From Bacteroidales bacterium (GTDB taxonomy: Bacteria; Bacteroidota; Bacteroidia; Bacteroidales; 4484-276): a stretch of DNA of 64,000 nt. This document shows positions 1,178 to 2,680 of this stretch, one piece after another. The stretch lies in the NCBI GenBank assembly GCA_036794825.1, contig DAIRGA010000012.1:60489-124488 (forward strand), given 5' to 3'. Below the pieces are notes generated by a model, which was not told where the DNA came from, made no database searches, and saw nothing but the letters and a program-made list of their open reading frames with translations. Position 1 is the stretch's first letter, and each line of letters opens with the position of its first letter. Both the position numbers and the translations under genes were made by a program.

Positions 1178-2680
1178 ATGAAATTACCAGACTCAGCTCG
1201 TAACTGGACTTCAATTTTAGGCGCCGCACTGGCACTTACTACCCTTTTTGTTATCATTTTCCTGTTTATCATCTCAATGTTGTTTGATTCTGGAAGTTCG
1301 TATCTGGGACTTTTTACTTTTATCATTCTTCCGGTGTTCCTGGTTATTGGCCTTTTTCTGATTCCAATTGGAATGATATTTACCAGCAAAAGGAAAAAAT
1401 CAATTACAAAAACCGGGGATCAAACGGATTGGCCGATCATTAACCTGAACCTCAGGACCACCAGAAATGCACTTACAATATTTGTGATTGGATCGGTTAT
1501 ATTTTTCATGCTTTCGGGAATTGGTTCATATGAGGCATTCCATTATACTGAATCGGTCGGGTTTTGCGGAACACTGTGCCATAAAGTTATGGAGCCCGAG
1601 TTTGTTGCTTATCATCAATCATCACATGAGAGGGTCAAATGTGTGGAATGTCATGTTGGTGCGGGTGCCGACTGGTATGTAAAAAGTAAACTTTCCGGTC
1701 TTTACCAGATCTATTCGGTTACTTTCAACAAATATCCCCGCCCGATTCCCACACCTATCCATAACCTGCGTCCGGCGCGCGAAACCTGCGAGCAGTGTCA
1801 CTGGCCCGAAAAGTTCTACGACCCGATGATCAGAATGAAAAAATCTTATCTGAGTGACTATGATAACACAGAATGGGACATTCATTTGATGATGAAAACC
1901 AGCGCCACTTATAGCGCCCTGGGGTTGCAGGAGGGTATTCACTGGCACATCAATCCTGATGTTCAGATTGACTATATTACTGATCCTGACGATCCTTCAA
2001 AGATACCGTGGGTAAGGTCGCGAAACAAACAAACCGGCGAAGAAAAAATTTTCCTCGACAGCCAATACAGCGATAAACATATGGCAATGGATGCCGGCCA
2101 GTTGAAAACGATGGATTGCATGGATTGCCATAACCGCCCGTCTCACAACTACAAAGTGCCACAGAATTTTGTTGACGACCTGATTACTGCCGGCAACATA
2201 TCTACGGAATTGCCTGATATTAAGTACGTTTCGATGGAAATCCTTTATCAGGATTACGAAACCAAGGAAGCCGCATTTGATTTTATTCAAAAACGGGTAA
2301 AAGAATATTACGAAGAAAATTATGACTACCTGCTTGAAGACTACGAAGAGCAGATCAATCAGTCTATTGCTGCCATTCAAACTGGTTTCAGCCAGAACAT
2401 TTTTCCTTATATGAAGGTTAACTGGTCCGTTTACCCGACTCACCTTGGGCATATGGAATCCGACGGATGCTATCGTTGTCATTCAGACAGACATTCGACA
2501 AGCAGCGGCGAAACTATTTCAAGGGATTGTCAGTTGTGTCATAACATCATAGCCCAGGGAACGCCCGGATCAATGCAATACAGCGAATCATTCAATGCAC
2601 TTGATTTTGTCCATCCTATAGAAATCCGCGAAGAATGGCGGGTAAAGCTTTGCAGTGAATGTCATTATAGATTGTATTGA
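1178..2680 (+). CDS. imcH: ImcH-like heptaheme inner-membrane cytochrome c (NapC/NirT-type N-terminal domain)
   Basis: Three N-terminal hydrophobic helices; hemes CGTLCH (CX3CH), CVECH, CEQCH, CMDCH, CYRCH, CQLCH, CSECH; blocks FCG.LCH.VMEPE, CVECHVG.GA.WYVK.K.SGL.Q, NLRPAR.TCE.CHWPEKF, GIHWHI, MDC.DCHNRP.H match Geobacter ImcH as I recall it. Confidence 0.8.
   Translation: MKLPDSARNWTSILGAALALTTLFVIIFLFIISMLFDSGSSYLGLFTFIILPVFLVIGLFLIPIGMIFTSKRKKSITKTGDQTDWPIINLNLRTTRNALTIFVIGSVIFFMLSGIGSYEAFHYTESVGFCGTLCHKVMEPEFVAYHQSSHERVKCVECHVGAGADWYVKSKLSGLYQIYSVTFNKYPRPIPTPIHNLRPARETCEQCHWPEKFYDPMIRMKKSYLSDYDNTEWDIHLMMKTSATYSALGLQEGIHWHINPDVQIDYITDPDDPSKIPWVRSRNKQTGEEKIFLDSQYSDKHMAMDAGQLKTMDCMDCHNRPSHNYKVPQNFVDDLITAGNISTELPDIKYVSMEILYQDYETKEAAFDFIQKRVKEYYEENYDYLLEDYEEQINQSIAAIQTGFSQNIFPYMKVNWSVYPTHLGHMESDGCYRCHSDRHSTSSGETISRDCQLCHNIIAQGTPGSMQYSESFNALDFVHPIEIREEWRVKLCSECHYRLY

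Follow-up and report, generated by a model that had tools for sequence, protein, structure and literature searches.

The 64-kb stretch of DNA from a Bacteroidales genome that we analyzed (hereafter the window) carries, at 1178..2680 on the forward strand, a gene for a 500-residue heptaheme c-type cytochrome of the inner membrane. We refer to this gene as imcH-like and number amino acid residues along its 500-residue product. The reading frame, the heme motifs, BLASTP, the published layout of the Geobacter sulfurreducens protein GSU3259 and a set of family-invariant residues all agree, and judging by the sequence it is very likely that the product is a menaquinol-oxidizing cytochrome of the ImcH family. 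Few sequence markers are available for the initial step in extracellular electron transfer. ImcH is one of them, and a bona fide member of its family is here carried by a Bacteroidales genome. Proteins of this kind are already recognized and already known from Bacteroidota. The gene itself is unsurprising to specialists because ImcH homologues from this phylum were reported in 2018 and 2023 (Zhong & Shi 2018, Table 1). Worth noting beyond this are the misleading public names of a large family and the conserved Bacteroidia locus in which imcH-like resides.

Agreement with Geobacter ImcH

The imcH-like open reading frame (ORF) is uninterrupted over its 500 codons, and its ATG start is unambiguous, as an in-frame stop codon lies 6 nucleotides 5' of it. 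A CX3CH motif, C130GTLCH, is followed by six CXXCH motifs: C155VECH, C204EQCH, C314MDCH, C431YRCH, C451QLCH and C492SECH. The hydropathy profile contains three hydrophobic segments (residues ~9-34, 43-68 and 96-119), and an AlphaFold2 model computed with 60 homologues has helices at 10-36, 41-77 and 93-137. Together with the helix positions published for GSU3259, these data place three transmembrane (TM) helices at residues ~10-36, 41-77 and 93-119 (1205..1534, forward strand). The initial annotation, made from the window alone, had described three TM helices, a CX3CH first heme and six CXXCH hemes, and the motif scan, the hydropathy and the model helices bear this description out.

The third helix is directly followed by a NrfH/NapC-like module (residues ~120-229; 1535..1864, forward strand), which was delimited by Pfam, by alignment with NrfH and by residue equivalence with ImcH. 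It holds hemes 1 (C130-X3-C134-H135), 2 (C155) and 3 (C204) and the proposed quinol-site residues E125, K171, Q177 and Y186. The Pfam family Cytochrom_NNT (PF03264, NapC/NirT) matches residues 98-186 only (E=1.8e-8). The region of hemes 4-7 (2117..2665, forward strand) ends in a cytochrome c3/c7-like C-terminal module, which matches Pfam Cytochrom_CIII (class III cytochrome) at residues 415-497 with E=3.2e-5. No second ImcH-like ORF was found in the window.

The hallmarks of ImcH are three TM helices, a CXXXCH first heme, seven hemes and a NapC/NirT similarity confined to the third helix and the first hemes (Levar 2014; Zhong & Shi 2018). In GSU3259, the ImcH of G. sulfurreducens, which is 507 residues long, the helices span residues 13-35, 45-67 and 100-122, and the motifs start at 131 (tabulated as 132, one residue late), 156, 205, 311, 428, 448 and 486 (Zhong & Shi 2018, Table S3). 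The motifs of the imcH-like product are offset from these positions by 1 residue for hemes 1-3, by 3 residues for hemes 4-6 and by 6 residues for heme 7, and its NapC/NirT similarity is likewise limited to the third helix and the first hemes.

The comparison with Geobacter was made with these published motif coordinates and with other Geobacteraceae orthologues, not with the GSU3259 sequence. The orthologues were found by scanning one genome per species with a family representative (P0153) whose first six motifs occupy the GSU3259 positions. This gave Geomonas limicola, several Geobacter sp. and one Desulfuromonadales metagenome-assembled genome (MAG), and the ORF of the latter has its motifs at 131/156/205/311/428/448/486, identical to GSU3259. 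In BLASTP, these eight Geobacteraceae/Desulfuromonadales orthologues align with residues 7-496 of the 500 at 37.6-38.9% identity (E 1e-126 to 1e-131). About 98% of the length of the imcH-like product is thus aligned, where Levar et al. call for homology over at least 75% of the length of ImcH, and the similarity extends beyond the N-terminal domain. The best full-length matches are 500-residue ImcH-type proteins and not four-heme NrfH/NapC proteins that partner nitrite or nitrate reductases. The sequence blocks NLRPARETCEQCHWPEKF, GIHWHI and MDCMDCHNRPSH, which had been singled out as ImcH-like in the initial annotation, are all present, and their Geobacteraceae counterparts are NLRPARDTCEHCHWPEKF, GIHWHI and MDCTDCHNRPTH. 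Hence, the assignment to the ImcH family stands, but calling the protein a close ImcH homologue overstates an identity of 38-39%. Higher identities are found to the homologues of Caldithrix abyssi (58%, over the full length) and Rosettibacter primus of the Melioribacteraceae (49.6%), and ImcH homologues have already been published from both of these lineages (Zhong & Shi 2018).

The residues around heme 1 were compared as well. In ImcH, heme 1 is proposed to be ligated by His137 and Gln179, and E127, K173 and Y188 are conserved at the menaquinol site (Pimenta et al., bioRxiv 2023); the numbering of that work equals the motif positions of Table S3 plus one residue. The counterparts in the imcH-like product are H135, Q177, E125, K171 and Y186. 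They lie at equal offsets from the heme-1 histidine, and the Geobacteraceae proteins are in the same register, keeping the heme-1 Gln and the Glu/Lys/Tyr set. When 103 diverse members of the family are aligned, heme motifs 1-6 show no or hardly any variation, K171 is conserved in 100%, Q177 in 88% and Y186 in 82% of the sequences. Outside the motifs, five histidines (H150, H255, H257, H323 and H425) are invariant or nearly so and are candidates for distal heme ligands, the last four of them for the region of hemes 4-7. As far as the sequence allows them to be checked, all features that define ImcH are present in this protein.

A search of PDB sequences returned a single match, which was weak (NrfH, chain 2j7a_C; E=0.007, residues 120-229), and the PDB contains no ImcH structure. 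A Foldseek comparison of the AlphaFold2 model with the PDB gave nothing at E<=0.001.

The conserved cytochrome locus of Bacteroidia

The window matches a 137-kb source contig in ENA (L001) from its position 8824 on, with 0 mismatches in 12,680 nucleotides. Position 1 of the window is located 12 nucleotides 5' of a cytochrome gene. The window therefore begins inside a larger cytochrome cluster, the rest of which could not be seen when the initial annotation was made. In L001 the cluster is preceded by a gene on the reverse strand for a Crp/Fnr-family regulator of 230 residues with an N-terminal cysteine cluster (4491-5183). All other genes are on the forward strand. They encode a monoheme cytochrome c lipoprotein of 125 residues (5378-5755); a DUF5777 protein of 290 residues ('membrane bound beta barrel', E=1.4e-75) with a signal peptide and a C-terminal aromatic residue (5774-6646); a class I cytochrome c of 137 residues with a Cytochrome_CBB3-type domain (6688-7101); a CbcA-like cytochrome of 329 residues with seven CXXCH motifs and a C-terminal TM helix (7172-8161); a CbcB-like cytochrome b of 215 residues with a Ni_hydr_CYTB domain, whose gene overlaps the preceding one (8158-8805); and a six-heme c-type cytochrome lipoprotein of 342 residues (8836-9864, window 13..1041). 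The imcH-like gene follows at L001 10001-11503.

The six-heme lipoprotein lies directly upstream of imcH-like and was overlooked in the initial annotation, which had stated that no nrfA or napA partner is adjacent. The latter part of the statement is correct, as neither gene is present in the window or within 10 kb upstream of it. The lipobox of this protein, ITGC, is followed by TKEGP and by GxDG repeats, and it has six CXXCH motifs and no CXXCK. It matches no curated family above the cut-off save the generic Cytochrome_C7. We also considered it as a NrfA, which is ruled out by the lack of a CXXCK motif and by a Cytochrom_C552 score of 15.7 bits against a cut-off of 24.1. Homologues with the same lipobox context occur in five of five Bacteroidia loci, although their position within the cluster varies. 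This lipoprotein is a candidate electron acceptor of the imcH-like product. In both lipoprotein cytochromes of the cluster the lipoboxes are conserved and are followed by acidic or K-E residues, which we take to recall the Bacteroidota signal for lipoprotein surface export.

The whole set of eight gene families also occurs at the imcH-like gene of Gaoshiqia sp. Z1-71, a Bacteroidales MAG, Ancylomarina salipaludis and Maribellus mangrovi, except that the last is without the small cytochrome c. A Cytophagales MAG retains part of the set. In the loci examined from Geobacteraceae, Acidobacteriota and other groups, no members of the eight-gene set were present within 6 kb of imcH, with one exception, a distant cytochrome-b/multiheme pair located 3 kb downstream of imcH in a single Geobacter sp. 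Unlike the Bacteroidia locus, the Geobacteraceae and Acidobacteriota loci examined do not link imcH to a CbcAB-like pair, to a barrel of the outer membrane and to lipoprotein cytochromes. No description of the conserved Bacteroidia locus was found in the literature searched, it is not described by Zhong & Shi (2018), and no papers on DUF5777 came up in the literature searched for it.

The CbcAB-like pair resembles CbcBA of G. sulfurreducens in its architecture, which in the published description pairs a cytochrome of seven hemes, anchored by a C-terminal TM segment, with a 'thiosulfate reductase-like' dihaem cytochrome b. The CbcB-like protein itself scores 141 bits with the 'thiosulfate reductase cytochrome b' model, under the cut-off of 204 bits. 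Joshi et al. had already pointed to homologues of cbcBA, annotated as thiosulfate-reductase-like, from Prolixibacter, Marinilabiliales, Labilibaculum and Caldithrix. In contrast to the Geobacter genes, the Bacteroidia pair is ordered A then B and is linked to imcH-like. Furthermore, cbcBA is controlled by sigma54/BccR, whereas an Fnr-type regulator would control the Bacteroidia pair.

In all five Bacteroidia loci, the interval that separates the regulator gene from the first cytochrome gene contains an FNR/CRP-type palindrome, TTGAT-N4-ATCAA (L001 5258-5271; L086 5227; L087 5163; L004 3274; L088 2411), which is perfect in two of them and has one mismatch in three. It precedes a presumed operon that runs from the monoheme lipoprotein gene to the six-heme lipoprotein gene. 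No FNR-type box with up to 2 mismatches was found upstream of imcH-like in the five loci. Folding of the region between the six-heme lipoprotein gene and imcH-like gives a hairpin at window 1103..1136 (forward strand) with a 13-bp stem, an energy of -22.8 kcal/mol and a weak T tail. Comparable hairpins of 13-15 bp occur at the matching place in two other loci, L086 and L087. A scan for consensus promoters and terminators did not flag the hairpin, as its T run is short. Nevertheless, it is likely to be a terminator. Because of this terminator-like hairpin and the missing FNR box, imcH-like probably forms its own transcription unit, outside FNR control. In this it would be similar to Geobacter imcH, which is monocistronic and constitutively expressed (Levar 2014; Joshi et al.).

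Several observations on the surroundings of the cluster were made in addition. In Maribellus, a 944-residue fused multiheme/cytochrome-b (CbcL-like) gene is located directly upstream of imcH-like (L088 6915-9749). A ResB/CcsA fusion (cytochrome c maturation system II) is encoded shortly downstream of imcH-like in both Maribellus (L088 12158-15250) and Gaoshiqia (L004 9703-12825). Upstream of the cluster, the reverse strand of L001 1-3673 encodes a 700-728-residue multiheme cytochrome with a weak ExtKL-like match, a protein with a type IX secretion system (T9SS) tail, and PqqD-like and ATP-grasp proteins, of which the last two are possibly a peptide-modification set. Downstream of imcH-like, window 2921..4192 on the forward strand (L001 11744-13015; the longest ORF starts at 2855) encodes a secreted protein in which Pfam identifies DUF2271, two PKD domains and a T9SS C-terminal sorting domain. 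We rejected it as a partner, since other genomes have different genes downstream of imcH-like, and it is probably not part of the system.

Electron route and alternative explanations

Like the initial annotation, we infer a quinol-oxidizing route out of the membrane, by homology to the characterized protein. Menaquinol would be oxidized at a periplasm-facing pocket beside heme 1, as proposed for G. sulfurreducens ImcH. According to its alignment, heme 1 is likely ligated by His135 and Gln177, with Glu125, Lys171 and Tyr186 nearby. Menaquinol oxidation by G. sulfurreducens ImcH is electroneutral and the protein reduces PpcA; similarly, the menaquinol protons would here be released to the periplasm. 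The electrons would then pass along the seven closely spaced hemes to heme 7 and from there to periplasmic or lipid-anchored cytochromes. Gene context suggests the locus-encoded cytochromes as acceptors, and the two lipoprotein cytochromes and the DUF5777 barrel could form the outer-membrane step. The most likely role of the imcH-like product would be in anaerobic respiration of high-potential, probably extracellular acceptors, for example Fe(III) or Mn(IV), alongside the CbcAB-like oxidase. Labilibaculum species reduce Fe(III), and one of them also Mn(IV).

Taken as a whole, an ImcH-type exit from the menaquinone pool that oxidizes quinol beside a CbcAB-like oxidase and probably serves extracellular acceptors is the best explanation of the data, and we consider it probable. 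For the extracellular nature of the acceptor taken separately, we see about even chances. Several points weigh against this explanation. The identity to the Geobacteraceae relatives of the sole characterized member is modest (38-39%), and E125 is kept in just 64% of the 103 family members. The AlphaFold2 model has a mean pLDDT (predicted local distance difference test) of 65, which drops below 40 over the region of hemes 1-3 and to ~30 for residues 119-215. The model is thus poor at heme 1, and the His/Gln ligation is taken from the alignment only. The acceptor in Geobacter is the triheme PpcA family, and no PpcA-type gene was seen at the Bacteroidia locus. Finally, the class I cytochrome c of the cluster is of the oxidase-feeding type and fits a non-extracellular role equally well.

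This class I cytochrome c, with its Cytochrome_CBB3-type domain, is also the starting point of an alternative in which the imcH-like product is a CymA-like menaquinol:cytochrome c hub. Electrons would travel via soluble cytochrome c or periplasmic carriers to enzymes acting on soluble substrates (micro-oxic cbb3/caa3 oxidases, N-oxide reductases and similar) and not to minerals. The Fnr-type regulator and the FNR boxes would suit micro-oxic or anoxic control generally, related Marinilabiliales show micro-aerobic growth and possess cytochrome c oxidases, cbb3 among them, and NapC/NirT relatives such as CymA are promiscuous. However, a lipoprotein cytochrome gene accompanies the outer-membrane barrel gene in every case, and a second multiheme lipoprotein is conserved, and both are hard to fit into a chain confined to the periplasm. 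Moreover, none of the five Bacteroidia loci contains a gene for a terminal reductase or oxidase, and the characterized ImcH is specific for extracellular high-potential acceptors (Levar 2014). A hub of this kind appears rather unlikely. We give much less credence to operation in reverse, in which the protein would be a quinone reductase in electron uptake, and electrons from Fe(II) or a cathode would enter through a split Cyc2-like outer-membrane unit, made of the monoheme lipoprotein and the DUF5777 barrel, and move on to the quinone pool. The genes of this monoheme cytochrome and of the small outer-membrane barrel do adjoin each other, and we take the pair to resemble, by architecture only, the fused cytochrome-porins of iron oxidizers. 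On the other hand, ImcH homologues have so far come only from Fe(III) reducers and have been implicated only in quinol oxidation (Zhong & Shi 2018), their carriers here are fermentative heterotrophs reducing Fe(III), and the heme potentials of ImcH are low (-350 to -150 mV).

The automatic database names suggest yet another function, that of an anchor subunit of the NrfH/NapC/TorC type, serving a reductase for nitrite, nitrate or N-/S-oxides. It is the function that the Cytochrom_NNT match and the NrfH hit in the PDB would point to, and the modules are indeed homologous: in NrfH, NapC and CymA, too, one TM helix is followed by close-packed hemes, and a conserved lysine lies near the quinol site (K171 corresponds to NrfH Lys82/83). 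However, the NrfH model (TIGR03153) scores 45.1 bits against a cut-off of 134.2, and the NapC/NirT and TorC models TIGR02161, TIGR02162 and NF011606 remain even further below theirs (13.7 vs 310.6, 13.0 vs 478.2 and 14.5 vs 455 bits, respectively). The imcH-like product has seven hemes, three TM helices and 500 residues, whereas the anchor subunits have four or five hemes and one helix; compared with NrfH, NapC and CymA, it has two more helices, three more hemes, ~300 more residues and no enzyme partner gene. Heme 1 of NrfH is bound by CXXCHXM with Met ligation, in contrast to the CX3CH motif and the predicted His/Gln ligation here. In addition, nrfA, napA, torA and dmsA are absent from the window and from the five syntenic loci, and these loci also contain no nap, nir or tor genes. 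We therefore rejected this function on model scores, architecture and gene context, and consider it extremely improbable. The claim of the initial annotation that the layout is that of ImcH rather than of NapC/NrfH is upheld by these scores and by the coincidence of the seven motifs and three helices with GSU3259.

The Bacteroidia locus brings together two putative quinol oxidases and a candidate outer-membrane module. One could speculate that it is an extracellular electron transfer module specific to Bacteroidia, although we regard this extended proposal as no better than tentative. In it, imcH-like would be the constitutive high-potential arm, and a CbcAB-like quinol oxidase of low potential would come from an FNR-controlled operon, together with a periplasmic cytochrome c and with an outer-membrane exit made of the small DUF5777 barrel and lipoprotein cytochromes in place of an Mtr- or Pcc-type conduit. 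The lipoprotein export route of the phylum may flip these lipoproteins to the cell surface. The module would be the genetic basis of Fe(III)/Mn(IV) reduction in 'fermentative' Marinilabiliales such as Labilibaculum. In any case, the locus is a concrete target where Fe(III)/Mn(IV) reduction in fermentative marine Bacteroidota is still to be explained, and carriers are available in culture.

Family, names and distribution

Homologues of the imcH-like product form more than 8000 clusters (90% identity) at E<=1e-5, and the nearest of them are 94%, 73% and 71% identical to it. With clustering at 50% identity, 656 representatives match at E<=1e-30, and the CX3CH first heme motif was found in nearly all of 150 representatives. 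None of the database names of the homologues says ImcH. They are called 'NapC/NirT family cytochrome c', 'cytochrome c3 family protein' or 'nitrate/TMAO reductase-like tetraheme cytochrome c subunit'. Labels such as 'NapC/NirT' or 'nitrate/TMAO reductase subunit' would make metagenome surveys misassign these genes to nitrogen cycling. The family is also variable in length. Long variants of 600-940 residues have up to ~20 heme motifs appended C-terminally (P0128, P0138, P0168 and others), and there are six-heme variants without heme 7.

The closest named homologues (66-67% identity) come from MAGs labelled 'Bacteroidales bacterium'. These matches, the T9SS sorting domains in neighbouring proteins and the synteny with Marinilabiliales agree with the Bacteroidales-like genome proposed in the initial annotation. 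A Draconibacterium sp. protein (P0035) is 61% identical. Among the sequences compared by lineage, identity to the imcH-like product is 67% for a Bacteroidales MAG, 58% for Caldithrix abyssi, 56-57% for Marinilabiliales, 51-52% for Cytophagales, 50% for Melioribacteraceae, 38% for Geobacteraceae and 33-44% for other phyla. In a neighbour-joining tree, computed without support values, the protein groups with the Bacteroidales MAG and the Marinilabiliales. The sister of this group is formed by Cytophagales, Calditrichia and Melioribacteraceae, and the Geobacteraceae are a separate clade. By sequence, the protein is thus a member of the Bacteroidia/Calditrichia/Ignavibacteria branch of the ImcH family. 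The G+C content of the imcH-like region is 0.44, within the 0.41-0.48 of the window, and there was no sign of a recent horizontal acquisition.

Homologues already published from the Fibrobacteres-Chlorobi-Bacteroidetes group belong to the same sub-branch: Draconibacterium sediminis WP_045033316.1, Caldithrix abyssi Cabys_1801 and Melioribacter roseus WP_014855859.1 (Zhong & Shi 2018, Table S3). The first of them, the one Bacteroidetes homologue in that table, has an identical heme spacing, with the listed positions 9 residues lower (8 for the first motif, which is tabulated one residue late). However, these homologues are from other species and another family, and the closest relatives of the imcH-like product are found in uncultured Bacteroidales (94%, 73% and 67% identity).

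Two sequences carried unexpected taxonomic labels. A contig labelled as a Candidatus Heimdallarchaeota MAG (L074) contains a Cyclobacteriaceae-type imcH-like gene (50.6% identity, nested in Cytophagales in the tree) and the small cytochrome c of the cluster, and it is probably mis-binned. Another case of mis-binning may be P0087, which is labelled Methylococcaceae. In the closest named relative, the region downstream of imcH-like (L086 11832-15423) has an unusual combination of genes, in which two GCV_H-domain proteins flank 4Fe-4S ferredoxin-type and NrfD-type membrane proteins. An Rfam scan of the window gave no regulatory RNA near imcH-like, and its only match was one tRNA gene at 28090-28164 on the forward strand.

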